Below are positions 1,141 through 32,056 of a DNA stretch of 53,112 nt, one piece after another. The notes below the pieces were generated by a model. The model had not been told where the DNA came from and searched no databases. It saw only the letters and a list, made by a program, of their open reading frames with translations. Numbering within the stretch: position 1 is the first letter of the stretch; each line of letters opens with the position of its first letter. Origin of the DNA: a virus (taxonomy: Duplodnaviria > Caudoviricetes); the IMG/VR virus record IMGVR_UViG_3300031454_000236, positions 1-53,112 of that record; one strand, written 5' to 3'. The position numbers and the translations under genes are program-made.

Positions 1141-1506
1141 CTAGGGTGCGGGCACCGGCGCGGTGGATGCGCCGAACTGCGGGCCGGTGCGTTCCAGCGC
1201 AGCAACGGTACCGAGCGGCGTCCAGAAACGGGCGAAACTCGTCCAGGCGCTCGCCAGGATCGCCACGATGTTCAGCGCGATCAGTTGGGCATTGTCGGCG
1301 GCGGACGTGCCCCAGGTGCCGGTATAGCCCTTGGTGAGCACGGTGACGATAAGCGCTACCCCGACACAGACGAGGAACGAGAAGAGCGTCTTGAATCGGG
1401 ACGAGGCGTAATGCGACTGCACCCAGGCGATCGCCAGCGGCAGGGCCGTGCCGATCAGGAATGCGGCGAGCGTCGAGGGGTCGAGGGTCAGCGGCGGCGT
1501 GGTCAC
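1141..1506 (-). CDS. Putative holin
   Basis: 121 aa with about 3 hydrophobic segments; last gene of the lysis cluster. Confidence 0.7.
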   Translation of the reverse strand: MTTPPLTLDPSTLAAFLIGTALPLAIAWVQSHYASSRFKTLFSFLVCVGVALIVTVLTKGYTGTWGTSAADNAQLIALNIVAILASAWTSFARFWTPLGTVAALERTGPQFGASTAPVPAP

Positions 1507-1664
1507 GGTTGACTCCTGCTGCTATACTATACGCTGATGGATTGAGAGGGCCGGGGCGCTCAATCTGCTCTCATCGCCGGACGGTGATAGCTGCGCTCCG
1601 GCCCTCGGTGCGTCCAGTTGCGGTCAGACGGTCGCGCCGAGCATCGGCGCTCGCGCCGTCGCGA

Positions 1665-1943
1665 TCAGAGCCCCGCGACCGCCATCTTGTACTCGGCGCG
1701 CACCCCGTCGCGCGGATCGCAGTATGCGTAGACGTACCACTGCCCATTCTCGGGACGGATACGCACGGCCTGCGTGTTGCTCCCGTCGGGGATGGCGATC
1801 GGCCCCCACGACTTGCCGTTGGCAAAGCCGAACAGGCTACGACCCTGGCGGTAGACTACCGCCGCACCGTGCTCGGCATCCCAGTAGCGGTCGTAGGCGT
1901 TGCTGTCGGACGATACCTCGCGGATCAGGGTCCAACTCATCAT
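1665..1943 (-). CDS. Small beta-rich protein; probably also the C-terminal domain of a frameshifted long endolysin
   Basis: Has its own SD (GGAGG, 1950-1946) and ATG. The frame stays open upstream through a Pro/Thr linker to the slippery site at 2060-2066. Confidence 0.65.
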   Translation of the reverse strand: MMSWTLIREVSSDSNAYDRYWDAEHGAAVVYRQGRSLFGFANGKSWGPIAIPDGSNTQAVRIRPENGQWYVYAYCDPRDGVRAEYKMAVAGL

Positions 1944-2053
1944 GCCCTCCTGTGGTTGTGTCGGCGTTGGCTGCGGCTGCGGCCTGGGTGTCACCACCAC
2001 CGGGGGCGTGGGCGTCGGTGCCGGGACCGGCACGGGCGCGGGGGCCGATGGCG

Positions 2054-3541
2054 TCAGGATTTTGGGATAGGGTAGAAATCCTTGAACGTGTTCTGCTGCT
2101 GCGAGCGCCCGTACCGCTCGCCGTGCTTGTTGATCATCGCGACGCCCTGATCCTGGGTGTTCACCGTCGCGGCTACCACATCCCGCTCGTCCGGCCCGTA
2201 ATTGCTCACCACCACGACCTGCCCGCCGATGATCTGCACCTCGGTCACGCCCACTCTCGGTACGGCCACGTCAACCTCCTGTTGCGCCGGGATCACCGGC
2301 ACCTTGCCGACCGTCTCGCTCGGCGGCGTGTTGATCCGCATACCCGCCACGATCAGCCCGCCCGAAGGGTATGGCACACCTTCTTGGTGATGCCGCATGA
2401 TCGCTTTCACGGCGGCTTGATAATCATCCACGTAATCGGTTATCCGTGGACGGGGACACTCTTTGTACGCACTACCGCAGAATTCTTTGTGCCACATGTT
2501 GAAATCGTAGGTCGCCGCCGTCTGCGCGAACTCCTCGGCGTGGAGGTAGGCTTGTAGCCAGATCGAGGCCGACCACTGGTAGACCGTCACCGCCGCCTCG
2601 CCCGGTGCCACGCGCGCGCCGTTCGCCAGCGTCGTGTCATCGTGCTCGATCGAGACGCCGACATTGTTGACCGCCGCCGCGCCGCCGAAGTGGGCCAGGA
2701 AGCGCGGGCCGTCGCCCTGGGGCGAGCGGACCGGCCCGCTCGCCCAGGGCATCAGCGTCCCCCGAATCTCGCACCACTGGATGATCTGCGCGAAACCGCT
2801 GCCGTTGAAGTTCGTCTGGCCGATCCCGAAATCGGTGAGCGCTTCCACGTCCGGGCCGGGGAAATAGTTGTCGCACGAGCCGAGCGTCCCGGCCATGCTG
2901 TGCAGCACGGTCGCACCGGGCGTGCGTTTGCTGTCGAGCCGCTCCACGCCCACGCCGTCGCGCTTGGGCGGGATGCCGATGATATGATTCGTGATCGGCG
3001 GTTTCGGCACATGTCCCGTCACGCTGCCCCCCTTCGCGGCGCTCGCCGCCTCCTGTGCCCGCCACGCGGCCATCTGCGCCAGCACGCCGCGCACGTAGGC
3101 CGTCGGGTCGTTCCCGTCCGTCGCGGGTGCCCACGTCGGAATAATCTGCGTCACAGTCGTCTTGCCCTGATAGGGCGCGTAGTCCACGAAGCGGGCGACC
3201 GTAGCGATCCCGCCGTCGATCCAGTCGCGGAAGACCGGGAACTGTCCTGAGCGCGCCTCGCCCGGCGTGGTCATCCGTACCGGCGTCACCCCGCCGTGTG
3301 TCGGCAGGCGGGTATTTCCCCACGAGTGGGTGATCGTCGCGGTGCCAGCCTTGCCCATGCCCGATTCGCGATTGAACATGGCGATAATGAAGGAAGGCGA
3401 GACCCCCCGCTTGACACAGTATTGATAGACCGCGTGGCCCGCCGAGAGGGCCGGGCTACCAGCGGCTTTCAGCGCGCCGATGAAGGTCAACTCGCTGATG
3501 TCGGGAGTGACGCCGATCACGCGATAGTCTGCGAGTGTCAC
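2054..3541 (-). CDS. Endolysin: N-terminal glucosaminidase/lysozyme-like domain plus Amidase_2 domain
   Basis: First domain: AMFNRESGMG...TVTQIIPTWAPATDGNDPTAY. Amidase-like motifs: VLHSMAG, NNVGVSIEH, WHKEF...KECP. The GTG start overlaps the upstream TGA (GTGA). Confidence 0.85.
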   Translation of the reverse strand: MTLADYRVIGVTPDISELTFIGALKAAGSPALSAGHAVYQYCVKRGVSPSFIIAMFNRESGMGKAGTATITHSWGNTRLPTHGGVTPVRMTTPGEARSGQFPVFRDWIDGGIATVARFVDYAPYQGKTTVTQIIPTWAPATDGNDPTAYVRGVLAQMAAWRAQEAASAAKGGSVTGHVPKPPITNHIIGIPPKRDGVGVERLDSKRTPGATVLHSMAGTLGSCDNYFPGPDVEALTDFGIGQTNFNGSGFAQIIQWCEIRGTLMPWASGPVRSPQGDGPRFLAHFGGAAAVNNVGVSIEHDDTTLANGARVAPGEAAVTVYQWSASIWLQAYLHAEEFAQTAATYDFNMWHKEFCGSAYKECPRPRITDYVDDYQAAVKAIMRHHQEGVPYPSGGLIVAGMRINTPPSETVGKVPVIPAQQEVDVAVPRVGVTEVQIIGGQVVVVSNYGPDERDVVAATVNTQDQGVAMINKHGERYGRSQQQNTFKDFYPIPKS

Positions 3542-4239
3542 GCCGTCACCGCCTTCCGCGTCGTATGCGGCACCTCGGTCGGCGCTACGCACTCGCCGTC
3601 CTCCTTCAGTAGACGTTCAAGGTCTGCGAAACTGAGAAAGAAATACCCGAATGTTGACCACGATGTGAGGCAGCGTACCGCCTGTCGCCGGAGATCGACC
3701 CCCACGATCAGGATGCAGTGGCCGCCTACGATGCGCGAGCGCGGGGTGATCCGCATGAAGCCGTCCTGGTCCCGCGCGAAGAACGAATCCCGCCACGCGA
3801 ATCCCGCCACCAGCGGGCCGTGCCAGGAGAGCCAGTCGATCGCGGTGTCCACGTCGTAGGCCCAGCCGTAGGCACCGATCAGCCCCAACTCTTGCAGCGC
3901 CTTTGCCCCGGCCCGGACGCTCGTCCCCATCTGCCGCTGCGTGTCGCGGTCGTTGTCCGGGAACTCATCGAGCAGGATCGCCCGGTCGTAGATCGCGAAC
4001 GGGGACGGCGCGGGGTCGCCCAGCGGCTGCGGCGTGCCGGTCAGCAGGTGTCTGAATGCATGACCGACGCATGTCCCCGTTTCCCCTTGATCCAGCCAGC
4101 GCGCCATCAGGGGCCACATCTTCGTGCGTGGCGGCTGTGGGGCGGTCGCCCGTAAGAGGAAGGCGTGGTCGCGCGCATCTGGAGCGTGGTGCCTGCCGAG
4201 TCCAGGTCGTTGCGGCGGGATCAGCGTCGATCCGGTCAT
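3538..4239 (-). CDS. Papain-like (C1) cysteine peptidase
   Basis: DQGETGTCVG (Q and catalytic C), GGHCILIVG (H), and TSW at the NSW position. Translationally coupled at both ends. Confidence 0.8.
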   Translation of the reverse strand: MTGSTLIPPQRPGLGRHHAPDARDHAFLLRATAPQPPRTKMWPLMARWLDQGETGTCVGHAFRHLLTGTPQPLGDPAPSPFAIYDRAILLDEFPDNDRDTQRQMGTSVRAGAKALQELGLIGAYGWAYDVDTAIDWLSWHGPLVAGFAWRDSFFARDQDGFMRITPRSRIVGGHCILIVGVDLRRQAVRCLTSWSTFGYFFLSFADLERLLKEDGECVAPTEVPHTTRKAVTA

Positions 4240-4577
4240 TCGCCGCCCCCTCCTGGTGGTATCGGCACGCCCGCCGCCTCGTGCGCGGCGGTGATCAGGC
4301 GCAGGCCCTCGCGGGCGTAGCGCGCGGTGTAGGCGTTGACGTGCGGCAAGGGTGTCCCGGCCATCAGCGCGGTCAGATAGATGTGCAGATTGCGGTGACT
4401 GGACCGACACAAAGGGACCGTTTCACGGTTCCGCACCCGCCCCCAGAGGAAAATTTGCGAGTACTGAGGGTGGATATGGTGCCGCTCTATTTGCAGCGGG
4501 ATCGGCACGTGGCGTTGGCAACACTGGCACGGTTCGTCGCTGAATGGCGCGGTGCGTGGTGGTGAGGTCCCGCTCAT
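4236..4577 (-). CDS. Small HNH-like endonuclease
   Basis: CQCC...ERHHIHP...VPLCRSSHRNLH; ATGA overlaps with both neighbours. Confidence 0.65.
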   Translation of the reverse strand: MSGTSPPRTAPFSDEPCQCCQRHVPIPLQIERHHIHPQYSQIFLWGRVRNRETVPLCRSSHRNLHIYLTALMAGTPLPHVNAYTARYAREGLRLITAAHEAAGVPIPPGGGGE

Positions 4578-25198: not shown

Positions 25199-25420
25199 TC
25201 AGGTGACAGCGTACAACGGCGGTGACGCCTCGATCGCGCCGGTCGTGACGGTCGTAGGTTGGCCCGCGACCAGCACATTCAGGGTCTTGCAGCGCGGGCG
25301 CTCGCAGAGGATTTCCAGCACACCTGCGGTGATTGCGTGCCGACACAGGAGCCGACCGCAGCGCCGACAGCGGAACTCCCGCAACCCTGGTGTAGGCTCC
25401 ACCGCGTTACCGATAGCCAC
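25199..25420 (-). CDS. Com-like zinc-ribbon protein 1
   Basis: EFRCRRCGRLL...LEILCERPRCKTLN resembles Mu Com. Confidence 0.72.
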   Translation of the reverse strand: MAIGNAVEPTPGLREFRCRRCGRLLCRHAITAGVLEILCERPRCKTLNVLVAGQPTTVTTGAIEASPPLYAVT

Positions 25421-28400
25421 GCAACCTCGCTTCTCGCCGCTCCTCGCGCTTCAATTGGTCGACCGTGATCTCCGGCGTCGAGGAGACGATGGTGTAGTTG
25501 GCGATGTGCGTGTCGCCCCCCTTTTCGGAGCGCGGGGACAGCGCCGCCAGCTGATCGGCGTTGAATATCGCCTCCTTGCCGTTCTCCCCGAACGTGTAGG
25601 AGCGCCCGGAGCGCTGGCCGCGCCCGACGATCGGCTCGGTGATCACGCCGCCATCGGCCATGCCGACGATGCCGCGACTATCCCCCCACGCGCCCGCGAT
25701 CCGGTCGCCGGGGTACATGTCTCGCGGGCGCTCGGCGTAATAGGCCGCGCGTGCGCCCGCGTAGGCGGGATCGGTGCCCCACGGGAGGTCGCCGCGCCGC
25801 GTGGCCGCGCGATAGTCGGCGTACATGAAATCGGTCGCCCACACCGGGTCTTCCGCCTGCGCGCGGCTGACGCCGGGATGGGCCACGGTGTAAATCTGGT
25901 ACGGGCCGAAGCTCTGGCCGTTGTCCCCCGCGCCGAACGTCGGACCCCAACCGCCCTCCATGTGGCTGCCCATCAGCATCGCCAGTCCGGTGTAGCTGTC
26001 GTTGCCGACCTTGCCGAGGATGGCGTCCACCACGGTCGAGCCGTTGCCGGTGAACGGCCCCGAGCCGTCGCCCGGCCCCGTCTTGGTCGCGTACTTCCCG
26101 CCCGCGATGTCGCGCAGGAGGTTGTAGGCATCGAATGAGCCGCCGTCACCCGCCGAGGTGATCTCCGGGCCGATACCGATGTGGAGGTGTGGGGCACCCG
26201 TGCCCCCCTTGTAGGCGTTACCGGTGCGACCGACCCAGCCGAGTTGCTGGCCCGTCGCGACCGCCCCGGACACGCTCGCCGGGTCGCGCATATGAGCGTA
26301 GTAGTATTGGAGTCCGTCGTCGCCGTAGACGGTGATGGTGTTGCCGCCGAGCGGGAATTCCATCGGCCCGCTCGCCCGACCGCCACGGGTCGCGACGATG
26401 CGCGACCCCTCCGGGGACATGATGTCGGCGGCGGAGGGCGAGCCGTCCCAATGCGGCCCGAACGAATTTTCGTAACCGGGGACCGGGAAGATGTACTCCC
26501 CGCTCGCCCCGCCTATCGGGGTTTTCGGCGTCGCCGCCTTCAGCATCTTGTCGATCGAGCCGAGCGCCCAATCCTTGACCTTCCCGGCCATCTTCGCGCC
26601 GATGTCGCCGAGCGCGCCCGGCAAACTCAGGTCGCCGAGTCCGACCGCGCCTTTCGCCTGATCGTAGAGCCAGCCCGCGCCCTTCTGCAGCACGCCGAAG
26701 ATGCCGCCGAGCGCGTCCAGTCCGCCCGCGAATCCGGGGACCAGCGCGGGGCCGGATTGCGGCGCGGTGACCACGCCCTGCCGCACCAGCGCCATCGAGT
26801 CGCGGTGGGGGAGGACTTGCGCGCCGCGCGGGAGGTAGGCCAGTTCCGCGCCCGCGCCGCCCGGCCCCTCGCCGACCCAGGCCATCCCGCCGCCCCAGTT
26901 GCGCGTGCCGGTCGCGAGGCCGGGGAGGGAGAACGACGGCGACTGATCCGCTATGCCGCCCGCGCCGAGCCGTTCCGCGATCCAGTTGATGATGCTGCGG
27001 ACCCCGTCCCCGAACTTGCGCACCCGGTCGCCCGCGCCATTGAGCGAATTGATGATCCCGTTGCCGAAGGCGTTGACGATCCCGCCGATGGCGTCCTTTG
27101 CCCCGTTGAAGGGTGACAGCAGCGCGTCTTTCATATTCCCGGCGTTGTCCCAGAGGAGCTTTTTCAGGTCGCCCCACTTGCCGGTGGCCGTGTCATAGAT
27201 GTTCTGCCAGGTGCCGATGAGTGCGTCTTTCGCGGAGGTGATCGGCATGGTGATCCGATCGCGCAGATCGGACCCGGTATCCCACAGCCACTGCCGGACG
27301 CCGTTCCAGGCGTCGATCGCCTTCTGGTAGATATTCGCCCAGGTCGTGTCGAGCATTGCCTTGGCCGCGTCGATCGGCGTGGTCACGCGCGCCTGCATGT
27401 CGCCCGCCGTCTGCAACAGCCAGGAGCGCACCCCATTCCAGGCGTCGGTCGCTTTGGTGTAGATGCTCCCCCAGGCCGTGTCCAGGAGCGCCTTCGCCAC
27501 GTCAATCGGCCCGGTGATGCGCGACTGCATCTCGGCGGCGGTTTGCAGCAGCCAGGAGCGGACGCCGTCCCAGGCACTCGTTGCCTTGGTGTAGATGCTA
27601 TTCCATGTGCCATCGAGCCATGCTTTCGCGGCGTCGATCGGGCCGGTGATTTTGGCTTGCATATCGGCGGCGATCTGCGCGGCGAAATCGCGCACCCCGC
27701 TCCAGGCTTGCGTCGCCTTGGTATAGATGCTATTCCACAGCCCCGTCAGCCAGTCCCGCGCCGTGGTGATACGCGCGGTCAGATCGTCCCGCACGTCGCT
27801 CGCCGCCTGCGTGACCGTCTTCCAGAGGGTCGCCCAGACGCCCGCCGCTTTGGTGTAGGCGCTATCCCACAGGCCGCCGAGCGTGTCGCGGAGGTCCGCG
27901 ATCTTCCCGCCGACCCATGATGCCAGGTCGCCCACCTTGCCTGTGACCCAGTTGTAGAGGTCCGTGGCCTTGTCGAGGCCGTTCCTGGCGATACGGACGA
28001 AGATCGCCAGCAAGAGTGCCTCGGTCTTGGCAAGCTCGATCAGGATAGTCACGCCGAGATTGATCACCGCCTGGACGATCTGCCCGACCATGCTATTCCA
28101 GGCATTCAGCGCGGTCGCCTTGATGTCGGCCCAACGGTCGTTGAGCCAGGAGCGCAGATCGGCGACCTTGCCGGTCACGCCGGACCACAGATCCCCCAGC
28201 GCCCCCGTCACCCCGCGCACGATGCCGTCCCAAATGCCGGAGACGAACGATGACACGGCGGTCCAGCGGTCGCGCCACCAGCCCTGGATGTCGTCGAGCT
28301 TGCCTCGGATGGCCGCGCCGAGCGCCGAGAAGCGGTCCCCGACATCGTTCTTCATGGTGGTCAACGTGTCGCGCACCGCAGTCCCCATGTCGGAGAACTG

Positions 28401-31127
28401 CTGCCCGGTGTCCACCAGGTATTGCGCCACGCGATCGTGGATGGTGGTCCCGATCGCGGAGAATTTGCCGCCGATAGCCGTGCCGATCGCGGCTAACTTG
28501 TCCTGGATCGCCGTCCCCAGATCGGAGAATTGTTGCCCCGTATCGTTCTTGTACTGCGTCAGCCGGTCGCGGATTGTCGTACCGATCTCGGAGAATTTGC
28601 TGCCCACGTACCCGGCGATGGCGTCCCAGGCGGCACCGGCGGCGGCCTGGATACCGCCCCAGATCGCGGCCAGGACGCCGAGCAGGATCGGCCCGGCGGC
28701 GGTGAAAAGCGCGACCAGGCCGTTCCAGGCGATCTGCGCGGCCTGCTGGATGTACGCCCATGCGCCATCCCAATCGCCGCTGATCAGCGCGAGGACGCCG
28801 CGTATGAGGTTACCGATGACGCCGAGGTAGGTGTTGATCGTGTTCTGGATCAGCGCCCACGCCCCGCCGAGCACGGCCACTATCTGATCACCGTGCGCGA
28901 CGAGGAAGCCCGCGACCGCGCCGAAGACGGTTTGCAGCATGCCCCACAGCCATGTCGCCGCCGCGACCACCTTGGTCGAGACGCTCTCCCAGGCGGCGCT
29001 CAGTTGCGGCAGGATGTCGGTCCAGAACTGGGACAGCCGCGCGCCGAGGTCCGCCAAGACCGGCTGTAACCAGGCCCAGACCGCCGCGACCTTGCCCTGG
29101 ATGTCGCCCCAGTTATTGGCCCAGGCCAGCCCGAGCAGGGTGACGACGCCGACGATCGCCGCGATCGCCAGCGTCAGCGGCCCGCCCAGCACGATCACCA
29201 GCGCCGCGACGATCCCGCCGACGCCCTCGATGGCGACGGAGAGGACGCCCCAGATGGCGATCGCGCTCGTGACCCAGCCGACCACGGTGGCGATGATCGA
29301 GAAGGCCGCGAACGCCGCCGCCCCGATCGCGACGACTTTGGCGATCGTGTCCATGTGGTCGCGGATGAACCCCGCGACCTGTTGCACGGCGGGCAAGACC
29401 TGATTGAAGAAGACATCCTTCGCGGTCAGCGCGAAATCGCGCAGGCGCAGCGCGAAATCCCCCACGGCGCGCACGGCGGGCTGCACGGTGTCGTCGCCGA
29501 CCCACTTCCCGGCGAGCGCCTGTTGCACCGTGATGAAGCCGTCGCGCACCAACTGGAAGCCGCCCAGCAGGTCGGACGTGAACTTGGCGACCTTGCCGCT
29601 GGTGCCTGGCCCGAACACGGCATCGAGCGCGGCCAGCAACGGCCCGAACGCGCTGTTGAAGTCGCCGGTCTGGAACGCTTGGAGTAACCCGCCCGCCGCA
29701 TCCTTGACGGGGCCGAGCATGGCGACGGCATCGCGTCCGAAGCCGAGCAGCGCCTTGCCGCCCTCCGTCACCTTCGCCGCGAGGACGGGTCCGTAGGTTT
29801 CGAGCAAGGGGATCGCGGCATTGACGGCCCGTGTCCCCCAGTCGATCACCCCGCGCAGCATCGGTAGGAAAGCCATGCCGATCGTGATCCCGGCGGTTTC
29901 GAGCGAGCCTTTGAGTTGTTCGAGCGAGCCACTGACGTTATCGAGACGATCCGCAGCGACCCCGGCGGCGGTGACATTGCCCATCGCCGCCGCCATCTCG
30001 TTAAACCCCTGCGCCCCGGATTTCGCGAAGATCGCCGCCGCGCGCGAGGCGTCGGAGCCGAACAACGTCTGGAAGGTCGCGAGCTTCTGTTGCTCGGTCA
30101 TGTCCTTGGTCGCGGTCTGCAAGATCCCCGCGACATCGGCCAGCGACTTCATCTTGCCGTTCTGATCGAAAAACGCGCTGCTGATCGTGCCGGTGCTGGT
30201 ATATAACTTGTCGAATTCTTTGCGCTGCTTGTCGGTCCAGGTCGTCGTATCCTGCGAATAACCGAGGTACTGCATCATCCCGCTGTTGAGGGCCGCCCAA
30301 TCATCCCCCGCGACCGCGATCCCCTTCTCGGCGAGGAATTTGAACCCGGCACTCAGGTTATCCGTCTGCAAACCGAGATCGCGGAAGAGCTTCCTTTGCT
30401 CACCCGTCTGCGGGATCAGGTTCGTCAGCATGGTCTTGAGCGACGTGCCGGCGTCCGAACCTTTGATCCCCGCCGCGCCCATGATCGCGATCCCCTGGGC
30501 GAGATCGTCGAACGACAGCCCGGCGACCGCCGCCATCGATCCCGCCGCCGCCATCGAGAATTTGAAATCGGTCACGGAGAGCGAGGAGGCGTTGGCCGCG
30601 CCCGCGACCAGATCGCTGACGTGCGCCATGTCGGAGCCGTTGAGCGAGAAGATATTCATGGCGTTCGCGGCGATCTCGGCGGCGTCGGGGAGGCTCACGC
30701 CGCCGGCCGCGGCGAGGTTGAGGACCGCTTGCGCCGCCCCCCCCATGATGTCGGGGATCTTGACGCCACCCTTGACCAACTCCTCGATCCCAGCCGCCGC
30801 CTCGGAGGCGCTGAAACTGGTGTCCTTGCCGAGTTGCAGGGCCAGGGACGATAACTGCCCCAGTTCGGCGGCGGTCGCGCCGGAGACGGCCTTGACGCCG
30901 CTCATGGTCTTCTCGAATGTGGAGGCCGCCCCGATGCTGCCGGAGAACGCGCCCGTTACGAGTTCTAGCCCTTTCTGGGCGACCGCGAAGCCGACACCGA
31001 GCAGCGCCCCTTTCAGGACCGTGCCGAAGCCACTGGCCGACTTTTCGAGCGTGCCCAACTGCCGCTCGATCCGGTCGGTCGTGCGGAAGAAGTTCTCGGC
31101 GTCGGCCTGGTAGCGAAAACTTATCAC
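25407..31127 (-). CDS. Tail tape measure protein with M23 peptidase and lysozyme-like domains
   Basis: 1906 aa; TP901-type core (AGIKGSDAGTSLK) and Trp-periodic repeats. M23 motifs H...D, YAHM and PHLH. C-terminal E...GDNGQSFGPYQI lysozyme-like segment. Confidence 0.95.
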   Translation of the reverse strand: MISFRYQADAENFFRTTDRIERQLGTLEKSASGFGTVLKGALLGVGFAVAQKGLELVTGAFSGSIGAASTFEKTMSGVKAVSGATAAELGQLSSLALQLGKDTSFSASEAAAGIEELVKGGVKIPDIMGGAAQAVLNLAAAGGVSLPDAAEIAANAMNIFSLNGSDMAHVSDLVAGAANASSLSVTDFKFSMAAAGSMAAVAGLSFDDLAQGIAIMGAAGIKGSDAGTSLKTMLTNLIPQTGEQRKLFRDLGLQTDNLSAGFKFLAEKGIAVAGDDWAALNSGMMQYLGYSQDTTTWTDKQRKEFDKLYTSTGTISSAFFDQNGKMKSLADVAGILQTATKDMTEQQKLATFQTLFGSDASRAAAIFAKSGAQGFNEMAAAMGNVTAAGVAADRLDNVSGSLEQLKGSLETAGITIGMAFLPMLRGVIDWGTRAVNAAIPLLETYGPVLAAKVTEGGKALLGFGRDAVAMLGPVKDAAGGLLQAFQTGDFNSAFGPLLAALDAVFGPGTSGKVAKFTSDLLGGFQLVRDGFITVQQALAGKWVGDDTVQPAVRAVGDFALRLRDFALTAKDVFFNQVLPAVQQVAGFIRDHMDTIAKVVAIGAAAFAAFSIIATVVGWVTSAIAIWGVLSVAIEGVGGIVAALVIVLGGPLTLAIAAIVGVVTLLGLAWANNWGDIQGKVAAVWAWLQPVLADLGARLSQFWTDILPQLSAAWESVSTKVVAAATWLWGMLQTVFGAVAGFLVAHGDQIVAVLGGAWALIQNTINTYLGVIGNLIRGVLALISGDWDGAWAYIQQAAQIAWNGLVALFTAAGPILLGVLAAIWGGIQAAAGAAWDAIAGYVGSKFSEIGTTIRDRLTQYKNDTGQQFSDLGTAIQDKLAAIGTAIGGKFSAIGTTIHDRVAQYLVDTGQQFSDMGTAVRDTLTTMKNDVGDRFSALGAAIRGKLDDIQGWWRDRWTAVSSFVSGIWDGIVRGVTGALGDLWSGVTGKVADLRSWLNDRWADIKATALNAWNSMVGQIVQAVINLGVTILIELAKTEALLLAIFVRIARNGLDKATDLYNWVTGKVGDLASWVGGKIADLRDTLGGLWDSAYTKAAGVWATLWKTVTQAASDVRDDLTARITTARDWLTGLWNSIYTKATQAWSGVRDFAAQIAADMQAKITGPIDAAKAWLDGTWNSIYTKATSAWDGVRSWLLQTAAEMQSRITGPIDVAKALLDTAWGSIYTKATDAWNGVRSWLLQTAGDMQARVTTPIDAAKAMLDTTWANIYQKAIDAWNGVRQWLWDTGSDLRDRITMPITSAKDALIGTWQNIYDTATGKWGDLKKLLWDNAGNMKDALLSPFNGAKDAIGGIVNAFGNGIINSLNGAGDRVRKFGDGVRSIINWIAERLGAGGIADQSPSFSLPGLATGTRNWGGGMAWVGEGPGGAGAELAYLPRGAQVLPHRDSMALVRQGVVTAPQSGPALVPGFAGGLDALGGIFGVLQKGAGWLYDQAKGAVGLGDLSLPGALGDIGAKMAGKVKDWALGSIDKMLKAATPKTPIGGASGEYIFPVPGYENSFGPHWDGSPSAADIMSPEGSRIVATRGGRASGPMEFPLGGNTITVYGDDGLQYYYAHMRDPASVSGAVATGQQLGWVGRTGNAYKGGTGAPHLHIGIGPEITSAGDGGSFDAYNLLRDIAGGKYATKTGPGDGSGPFTGNGSTVVDAILGKVGNDSYTGLAMLMGSHMEGGWGPTFGAGDNGQSFGPYQIYTVAHPGVSRAQAEDPVWATDFMYADYRAATRRGDLPWGTDPAYAGARAAYYAERPRDMYPGDRIAGAWGDSRGIVGMADGGVITEPIVGRGQRSGRSYTFGENGKEAIFNADQLAALSPRSEKGGDTHIANYTIVSSTPEITVDQLKREERREARLRGYR
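25410..25658 (-). repeat. Direct repeat copy B (TMP 3' end)
   Basis: Partner of 17610-17860, offset about 7.8 kb. Confidence 0.92.
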
Positions 31128-31155: not shown

Positions 31156-31530
31156 TCAGCGACTGGCCGCGTAGGCCTCGCGCGTCTCCGCCATGCGCGC
31201 CATCAGTCGGGCGGCGTTGTCGGCTTGCTCCGCTGCCGTCGGCTCGTCCGCGCTCTCGCCGTCCCACATGGCGTCGAAGTCGAGCAGGAAGTCGGCGGGT
31301 TTGCTGGTCGGCTTGGCCTCGGCGGCGGCGATGATGGCGTTGACGAGCGCCGCCGTCTGCGCCGCGCTCCGCAGATCGGCGCGCTCTTCCCCGAACGGCT
31401 CGCGCGACGCGAACACCTGCCAGGCGACGAACTCCCGCGCGCTCATCCGCGCGCCGAGTTCGTCCACGGTGAGGCCCAGGGCGAGCGCTAGTCGGTGGAG
31501 GAACCGTCGCTCCGGGCGTCGTCGAAATCC
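31156..31530 (-). CDS. Tail assembly chaperone, -1 frameshift extension (gpGT-like)
   Basis: LALALGLTVDELGARMSAREF..W....PFG in the -1 frame; slippery G-GAT-TTC at 31530-31524. Confidence 0.75.
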   Translation of the reverse strand, partial: GFRRRPERRFLHRLALALGLTVDELGARMSAREFVAWQVFASREPFGEERADLRSAAQTAALVNAIIAAAEAKPTSKPADFLLDFDAMWDGESADEPTAAEQADNAARLMARMAETREAYAASR

Positions 31531-31970
31531 TCGGCGATCTCCTCCTCCTCGGCGTCGGTGATCCCGGAGAGGCGCGCGGCCACGTCGAAGACCAATTTCA
31601 GCGCCGCGCCGTTCTTGTTCTTCAGCGCCTCGACATCGCTGGCGTCGAAGAGCCGCCGCGCGCCCGGCTGCGGCCCCTCGACCGCGCAGCGCGCCACGAC
31701 GCGCGACTGGAAGAGATCGGTGTCCACGCGGACCTTGTTCCCCTGGCCCCGGCGCATCGACTTGTAGAAGTTGTCGAGTTCGCCCGCCGTCATGCCCCGG
31801 ACGTAGAGGCTGCCGCCCCACGACGGTACATGGACCAGCTCCACCTGATCATCCTTGGCGCTGAGGATCGCGTCGCGCGACAGCAGCACCATGACCGGCG
31901 CATTGGCCGGTGCGTGCTGCGGTTGCGACTCCCCACGATCGTCCCCCTGCTGCTGCGTGTGCCCCTCCAC
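31488..31970 (-). CDS. Tail assembly chaperone (gpG-like)
   Basis: LLSRDAIL...VPSWGG.LYVRGMT..E.D...AARLSG; lies between the tail tube and TMP genes. Confidence 0.8.
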   Translation of the reverse strand: MEGHTQQQGDDRGESQPQHAPANAPVMVLLSRDAILSAKDDQVELVHVPSWGGSLYVRGMTAGELDNFYKSMRRGQGNKVRVDTDLFQSRVVARCAVEGPQPGARRLFDASDVEALKNKNGAALKLVFDVAARLSGITDAEEEEIAEDFDDARSDGSSTD

Positions 31971-32056
31971 GTGGTCCCCCCGCTCTCGTGTCCCCTACGT
32001 CCCATGCGGGCCGCCGCACCCCGGCGACGGCCCGCGCCTCCCTGTGTTCGTGCGGT

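Follow-up and report, generated by a model that had tools for sequence, protein, structure and literature searches.

Phage structural proteins can carry C-terminal extensions that are made by -1 frameshifting, e.g., immunoglobulin (Ig)-like domains on capsid or tail proteins, the product of gene 10 in T3 and T7, and the major capsid protein of MSTV1-like archaeal viruses. In one MSTV1-like virus the same domain is fused in frame, as stated in a section of PMC11375127, and part of the account in PMC5009743 describes how extension domains of phage proteins move by recombination, landing in or out of frame. Endolysins made of two polypeptides from one gene form another known group, in which the second polypeptide arises from an in-frame internal start, namely Lys170 and LysIME-EF1 (1:3), CTP1L, CD27L, CS74L and LysP7951 (1:5); according to PMC9430671, the free C-terminal module is expected to multimerise with the copy carried by the full-length enzyme. 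Here, we describe the lysis locus of a provirus, the 53,112-base IMG/VR record IMGVR_UViG_3300031454_000236 (approximately 67% G+C), hereafter called the window. The 3' end of its endolysin gene probably combines two phenomena of known kinds, frameshift-made C-terminal extensions and multi-polypeptide endolysins. We give a probability of about 0.7 to the explanation that a conserved -1 programmed ribosomal frameshift operates there. In the open-access literature searched, with passages of PMC9671017, PMC11375127, PMC5009743 and PMC9430671, we found no account of programmed frameshifting within an endolysin gene, and the word "frameshift" occurs 0 times in PMC9430671.

The locus consists of the following elements:

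2054..3541, minus strand: endolysin coding sequence in the zero frame, 495 amino acids (aa) from GTG 3541; the open reading frame (ORF) 2054..3592 gives 512 aa from GTG 3592.
2066-2060, minus strand: slippery heptamer C_CCA_AAA (X_XXY_YYZ, in the zero-frame register), one codon before the zero-frame stop.
2056-2054, minus strand: zero-frame stop TGA of the endolysin, from the ORF reading.
1944..2060, minus strand: linker of 39 codons, rich in Pro, Thr and Val, read in the -1 frame only, with the sequence ILTPSAPAPVPVPAPTPTPPVVVTPRPQPQPTPTQPQEG.
1950-1945, minus strand: Shine-Dalgarno (SD)-like GGAGGG inside the linker coding sequence, 1 nucleotide (nt) before ATG 1943 and 4 nt before ATG 1940.
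1665..1943, minus strand: ORF of domain A, 92 aa (91 from the second ATG), with ATGs at 1943-1941 and 1940-1938; predicted to be an eight-strand, two-blade beta-propeller-like module.

On the minus strand, the endolysin ORF ends with TTC TAC CCT ATC CCA AAA TCC TGA, which gives FYPIPKS*, the end of the protein tail FKDFYPIPKS*. An earlier note on this DNA had placed a heptamer C-CCA-AAA one codon before the endolysin stop, and a -1 frame running through a Pro/Thr linker into a 92-aa domain with its own SD and ATG (1943); both were confirmed by reading the sequence, the heptamer at 2066-2060 of the minus strand. From the heptamer onwards, the -1 frame encodes PK, then ILTPSAPAPVPVPAPTPTPPVVVTPRPQPQPTPTQPQEG, then MMSWTLIREV..., and stops at 1667-1665, 131 codons after the site. 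The Pro-rich text starts exactly at the shift site; 5' of the heptamer the -1 frame is open for 70 codons, which hold Arg/Gly-rich, out-of-frame text. Moreover, 32 of the 39 linker codons have G or C in the third position, similar to the genes of the window. An open -1 frame alone means little in DNA of 67% G+C, and in two of the loci considered below (L007 and L008) that frame is open for 229 and 103 codons past the stop without any heptamer. As to the heptamer itself, CCCAAAA occurs 2 times on both strands of the window, against 2.07 expected, and in-frame X_XXY_YYZ heptamers (Y = A or T) number 4 in the 11,488 codons of 35 likely window genes, i.e., 3.5e-4 per codon. The one at 2066-2060 is the sole member of these four that adjoins a stop.

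Comparison with related genes supports a frameshift. The 3' end of endolysin-family genes was read at the DNA level in ten loci (window, L001, L004, L005, L006, L007, L008, L009, L011 and L013), three further entries (L003, L010 and L012) being the contig of L001, which is filed under a second name as well. Four of the ten have the following junctions:

Window: CCA AAA TCC TGA; heptamer C_CCA_AAA; -1 linker of 39 codons.
L001 (89% identical): 3' end as in the window; heptamer C_CCA_AAA; -1 linker of 43 codons.
L004 (73-74% identical, with different flanks and a different C-terminal domain sequence): CGC CGC CCA AAA CCC TGA; heptamer C_CCA_AAA; -1 linker of 30 codons.
L005 (62% identical): CGG GGA AAA TAG; heptamer G_GGA_AAA directly before the stop; -1 linker of 18 codons into a domain A homologue.

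A canonical heptamer within the last 10 endolysin codons is therefore present in 4/10 loci, always 0-1 codon before the stop, in the form C_CCA_AAA three times and G_GGA_AAA once. A -1 Pro-rich linker (18-43 codons) leading into a small domain that has a GGAGG and a start of its own is found in exactly these four loci, so that the search for a heptamer plus -1 linker in related endolysins, suggested by the earlier note, singled out precisely those genes that have a domain downstream. Linker lengths differ (39, 43, 30 and 18 codons), and the frame is kept in all four; the A's are preceded by CCC or GGG in every case, and the full X_XXY_YYZ pattern is kept. The other six loci (L006, L007, L008, L009, L011 and L013) have neither heptamer nor linker, including L006, which is a close relative of L005 and yet lacks both. 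Among the homologues, the endolysins P0004, P0007 and P0017 have PGK* or RGK* as their last residues, which a G_GGA_AAA site would fit. The sole context common to the four slippery sites is the stop codon 0-1 codon downstream.

Further searches for relatives were made in several collections. Among cultured phages (50,697 records), tblastn with the endolysin and with the -1 product gave no match; scans of genome contigs with alignment A1 and with the protein P0068, introduced below, found no relative; and scans of viral contigs with A1, domain B, P0048 and P0046 returned an already known contig or a 20-residue match (L014), and nothing else. As a separate observation, in L006 (1020-1775) and in L007 (600-1223), two relatives with neither linker nor module, the endolysin stop is abutted by a gene of the opposite strand that is HNH-endonuclease-like, as recognized from its motif by eye only.

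Two different modules lie behind the common site and linker, namely domain A in the window and in L005, and domain B, of 109 aa, in L001 and L004. The two are unrelated according to hhalign (probability 0.09); module A is the one in L005, the more distant locus, and module B the one in L004. The lysis region itself is a mosaic: window 1944-2130 and L001 5428-5625 have identical DNA over the endolysin 3' end and as far as the linker reaches; at the SD and start they part, and the modules that follow, A and B, respectively, are unrelated.

The same arrangement of parts is found fused in frame. P0068, a protein of 420 aa present on 13 contigs and grouped in one 90% cluster with the 102-aa P0054, comprises GH25 (PF01183, expect value (E) 5.2e-24), a wall-binding-like domain (residues 223-280), a Pro linker of approximately 44 residues, and domain A (residues 325-420). 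Its residues 223-280 match the C-terminus of the L005 endolysin with an E of 7e-5 and its residues 325-420 match the window domain A with an E of 5e-12, and the order of its parts is colinear with that of the predicted trans-frame protein of the window. P0050 (163 aa), obtained by an all-length search with domain A, joins a wall-binding-like part, a Pro linker STPPAPAPVVEPPKEVVV and domain A, its N-terminal part being homologous to the endolysin wall-binding-like domain (E 1e-5). Thus, the in-frame fusions that the earlier note had named as something to look for do exist. When domain A itself was compared with the endolysin by hhalign, no relation was detected, the sole aligned stretch (probability 0.85) being the N-terminal extension of P0050 against the C-terminal wall-binding-like segment of the endolysin. 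Long repeat proteins matching domain A (cadherin-like, WD40, CBM14 and FG-GAP repeats) were rejected as heterogeneous multi-stretch matches, and a WYL match of domain A was rejected as well, its E of 0.03-0.08 missing the cut-off.

According to the mechanism that we propose, most ribosomes would stop at TGA 2056-2054 and release an enzyme of approximately 495 aa, which by itself is already complete, having two domains of catalytic type and one that is wall-binding-like. A minority would slip one base back on C_CCA_AAA, with tRNA-Pro in the P site moving from CCA to CCC and tRNA-Lys in the A site from AAA to AAA, and would then read the 39-residue linker and the 92-aa domain A, yielding a long form of 494 + 131 = 625 aa. 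Domain A would also be made free, from the SD and ATG that lie where the linker ends. The most likely outcome is three products of approximately 495, 625 and 92 aa, in agreement with the sizes given in the earlier note, which hold if GTG 3541 is the start; from 3592, the first two would be 512 and 642 aa. The proportions of the parts would depend on the frameshift rate and on the internal start. Because domain A is predicted to bind itself head to tail, free copies and the one on the long endolysin probably come together as one oligomeric, possibly lectin-like module, as in the known heteromeric endolysins with internal starts; the three products may thus co-assemble. This assembly may bind the cell wall.

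The likely start of the endolysin is GTG 3541-3539, because it overlaps the TGA of the upstream gene (3540-3538) and fits the N-termini of homologues, which follow the pattern M-[AT]-L-x-D-Y-x-[VI]-I-G. The protein itself has no match in Pfam (E<=0.1), in NCBIfam or among PDB sequences. Weak matches in PHROG, to phrog_873 "endolysin" (E 7.3e-6, residues 113-174) and to phrog_2276 (E 2.2e-6), correspond to one endolysin family and one lysozyme-like part of a tape measure. Its parts appear as an N-terminal glucosaminidase/lysozyme-like domain, a divergent Amidase_2-like centre and a C-terminal wall-binding-like domain of approximately 75 aa, the latter with the motif Y-x-R-S-[IVL]-x-x-G-x-[FW]-x-x-W in these endolysins. 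Among the 42 endolysin homologues, self included (E<=0.001), precomputed assignments comprise PF01510 (Amidase_2) in 17, PF01832 (Glucosaminidase) in 1 and PF01476 (LysM) in 1; in the aligned members of the family, an Amidase_2 match was obtained for 2/12 (best E 9.8e-4) and a Glucosaminidase match for 1/12, and the His/Glu/His/Cys pattern of Amidase_2 was recognized in the endolysin by eye only. Our reading is that the window protein is a divergent endolysin in which two catalytic-type domains are followed by one that is wall-binding-like. Whether close or distant, its homologues in several sources (JGI, Logan, NCBI and ENA) stop at the equivalent place, a few residues past the wall-binding-like motif, and therefore the endolysin of 495 or 512 aa is whole without any extension.

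In turn, the free form of domain A would rely on signals that recur among the loci, as GGAGG or GGGAGG precedes the start of the small domain by 5 nt in L001, L004 and L005. In addition, stand-alone homologues of domain A, of 91-102 aa, have been called in other data sets.

The structure of domain A was predicted with AlphaFold2 from an 8-row alignment, and the resulting model is all-beta with eight strands (predicted local distance difference test (pLDDT) 87.1, predicted template modelling score 0.78). Foldseek returned nothing from the PDB at E<=0.001, its weak matches being propellers. With an exhaustive structural aligner, the best 25 matches were all beta-propellers, at Z-scores of 5.0-6.4, which lie below 8 and are thus moderate, and may reflect merely a common arrangement. 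The best match was the WD40 of PALB2 (Z 6.4, root-mean-square deviation (rmsd) 3.1, 78 residues aligned); others were 6r5x, in which four 2-bladed fragments build an 8-bladed propeller (Z 5.3, rmsd 2.9, 67 residues aligned), and the phage receptor-binding propellers 5efv (Z 5.5) and 9m7x (Z 5.0). The Atlas model of domain A also matched propellers (template modelling score (TM) by query 0.56-0.64). Taken as a model, domain A looks like two four-stranded antiparallel beta-propeller blades. For domain B, the AlphaFold model was unusable (pLDDT 33.9), and only the Atlas model (pLDDT 0.64) looks propeller-like, with TM by query of 0.51-0.60, which we treat as a lead rather than a result.

Self-association of domain A was examined by predicting a complex of three copies and scoring the interfaces of one copy. 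The scores were 0.90, 0.92 and 0.90, in comparison to 0.26 for the best control, with a contact agreement of at least 92% and a partner pLDDT of at least 88, and the predicted contacts run head to tail, from residues 1-30 to residues 51-88 of the next copy. In the calibration, the mark was reached by 20/30 solved homo-pairs and by 1/23 single chains, counts that hold roughly, as two copies and own alignments were used there. The oligomerisation role that the earlier note had raised for this domain therefore gains support from the homo-oligomer prediction (0.90 against 0.26). A more elaborate version can be formulated, in which the -1 frameshift sets the fraction of enzyme that carries a two-blade fragment, the internal start supplies free fragments, and all of them close into one oligomeric propeller that serves as a lectin-like wall anchor; we put this forward tentatively, as a possibility that we ourselves find doubtful.

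Compared with the frameshifts of structural proteins, the locus is alike in having a complete gene with the slippery site at its extreme 3' end, in that the minority product would carry an extra, separately folding C-terminal domain, in having in-frame fused relatives, and in the swapping of domains A and B behind one linker. It differs in that the gene proposed to be recoded encodes a lysis enzyme rather than a virion protein, and in that the added domain is predicted to be propeller-blade-like, not Ig-like, and has its own ribosome-binding site and start. With the internal-start endolysins it has in common an SD and start for a free C-terminal module, here at the end of the linker, as well as self-association, here predicted. 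In those enzymes both ORFs share one frame and one stop, without recoding, whereas the full-length form of the window would need a -1 shift; moreover, a third product is expected here, the endolysin without the module, and the module is unrelated to their wall-binding domains. As the catalytic part and the module lie in different frames with a TGA between them, the window system is not a member of the internal-start endolysins, even though it may work like one.

Other described systems resemble single features of the locus. The G/GT frameshift of the lambda tail assembly chaperone takes place at G_GGA_AAG and does not need a strong RNA stimulator. The window likewise has an X_XXA_AAZ tandem-slippage heptamer near the end of the upstream ORF, which in L005 is G_GGA_AAA, but gene and function differ. 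PlyC, a lysin of a streptococcal phage, is built from one PlyCA and eight PlyCB, encoded by two separate genes; the combination of a catalytic subunit with separately encoded small subunits (PlyCB forming a wall-binding ring) is similar, while PlyC has neither a covalent long form nor recoding, and its fold is unrelated. RSL is a trimeric two-blade lectin. Finally, as in propellers from two-blade fragments such as 6r5x, domain A has approximately 90 residues and eight strands, and head-to-tail contacts are predicted; there is, however, no sequence relation, and the Z below 8 is only moderate.

In addition to those moderate Z-scores, several observations weigh against the proposed frameshift. 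The positive loci amount to about three independent lineages only, since the window and L001 hardly differ in sequence around the site, and all four derive from uncultured rock-type metagenomes. The in-frame state of P0068 and P0050 depends on how genes were called in public data; when longer fused forms were sought by word index, none turned up for the window domain A and none for domain B, and in the all-length search of representatives P0050 was the one longer true relative of domain A. Bacterial -1 frameshift sites commonly, though not obligatorily, have a stimulatory element, which may be a hairpin or pseudoknot on the downstream side or an SD-like sequence on the upstream side. Here, no stimulatory RNA structure was found in the 111 nt from the site when compared with shuffled sequences (z 0.22 in the window, -0.40 in L004, -1.06 in L005 and 0.68 in L001), no RNA structure common to the four loci was seen in the alignment, and no consistent SD-like element was seen upstream of the slippery site. 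Furthermore, the frameshift is not needed for domain A expression, because the domain has its own SD and start, and every linker contains in-frame GTG codons (e.g., 2033 in the window), each a possible start of an N-terminally extended small protein.

Several of these points are what would be expected from two plain adjacent genes without recoding, the endolysin always stopping at the TGA, and the heptamer and the Pro-rich stretch being a relic of an ancestral in-frame fusion. The small protein would then be made only from the SD and ATG 1943, or from an in-frame GTG further upstream (e.g., 2033), in which case its N-terminal tail would be Pro-rich. The GTG codons are present in every linker, yet no SD precedes them, and the Pro-rich reading extends past every candidate GTG up to the heptamer, over 9 codons in the window, 12 in L004 and 9 in L005. 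A good SD and ATG do lie before domain A, the endolysin is complete without the extension, and public callers list the domain A homologues as stand-alone proteins of 91-102 aa in several data sets, in line with separate genes, as is the lack of a detectable stimulatory RNA structure at the four sites. A relic should decay, however, and the four linkers (39, 43, 30 and 18 codons) differ by whole codons and are free of stops. Open -1 frames are indeed common in G+C-rich DNA, but two different canonical heptamers occupy the junction in diverged contexts, with none in the 6 linker-less loci and a background of 3.5e-4 per codon. Taking these points together, we consider two independent genes unlikely.

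The remaining alternatives place the shift in the DNA record or in the RNA. Adding one A to the run of four A's would create exactly the fused protein, and in-frame fused relatives exist, so that a single in-frame gene for endolysin, linker and domain could have been hidden by an error of sequencing or assembly, or could have been inactivated recently by the loss of 1 bp from the A run. To address the 1-bp assembly error that the earlier note had flagged, Logan contigs from four rock-metagenome runs of three studies were aligned to window 1500-2700, and none had an indel around the slippery site. The X1 contig is identical to the window and may be the source of its DNA, whereas X2 and X4 are independent: X2, from another study, spans 1503-2556 with 6 substitutions and 0 gaps, one of the substitutions (at 2069, CCT to CCG, synonymous) adjoining the heptamer, and X4, from a third study, spans 1958-2377 with 0 gaps and confirms the junction of the L001 type. 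Logan contigs can hide rare variants, e.g., a minor subpopulation with five A's; still, the arrangement is common to four loci of different assemblies with two heptamer types, and the end point is the same in many homologues of the JGI, Logan, NCBI and ENA collections, which leaves an error or a fresh deletion very improbable. We regard transcriptional slippage as equally remote; here, RNA polymerase would add one A to some mRNAs on the A run, with the same outcome, i.e., a fused product at a set ratio. Productive slippage of this kind in bacteria needs approximately 7-9 or more identical bases. The run here has only four A's, and what is kept in 4/4 loci is the full X_XXY_YYZ pattern, with CCC or GGG before them. 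Transcriptional slippage is among the topics of the review PMC5009743.

If the -1 programmed ribosomal frameshift is real, this would be the first endolysin with an architecture set by ribosomal recoding and, should the assembly also hold, the first targeting module that is a propeller from separate chains. Endolysins are usually seen as single polypeptides or, at most, as two in-frame isoforms, and a recoding-dependent ratio of anchored to unanchored enzyme would add a layer of lysis control. With the unrelated domains A and B swapped behind one slippery site and linker, the site would work as a plug-in socket that receives host-range modules. It would also open a new gene class to the hunt for programmed frameshifts, as such a gene comes out of standard callers as two, an "endolysin" and a "hypothetical protein". 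The predicted two-blade domain would represent a compact self-assembling module from phages of uncultured rock-dwelling bacteria. The model is directly testable through three predicted bands, a peptide across the junction and a synonymous heptamer knock-out.

Two neighbouring genes give the context of the endolysin and domain A:

3538..4410, minus strand: peptidase-like gene, 290 aa, upstream of the endolysin; phrog_16701 "peptidase", E 8.5e-38.
1141..1506, minus strand: gene for a hydrophobic protein, 121 aa, downstream of the domain A ORF; holin-like by position and by eye only.

The TGA of the peptidase-like gene overlaps the probable GTG of the endolysin as GTGA, and its product (3538-4410) may be another lytic enzyme whose translation is coupled to that of the endolysin. 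The 121-aa hydrophobic protein had no match in Pfam, PHROG or NCBIfam; in L001 and L004 a small hydrophobic protein occupies the same position. Elsewhere in the window, a tail assembly chaperone ORF (31488..31994, minus strand, ending in SDGSSTD*) is followed by a -1-frame ORF (31156..31848), ahead of the gene for a 1906-aa tape measure protein (25407..31127), which is the usual G/GT layout. A canonical X_XXY_YYZ heptamer was not found in this chaperone gene, by eye or in the in-frame scan, and the chaperone thus gives no positive control for heptamer preference.

The endolysin gene also varies upstream of its 3' end. X4 and the window differ by a diverged stretch of the same length (117 bases) within window 2377-2495, inside the endolysin gene, and match on both sides of it, a local mosaic patch between strains. 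At a larger scale, P0017 and P0020 keep the approximately 190 N-terminal residues of the window protein almost unchanged, with a classical Amidase_2 (PF01510) in place of its divergent centre, a sequence relationship that we interpret as catalytic-domain shuffling within the endolysin family.

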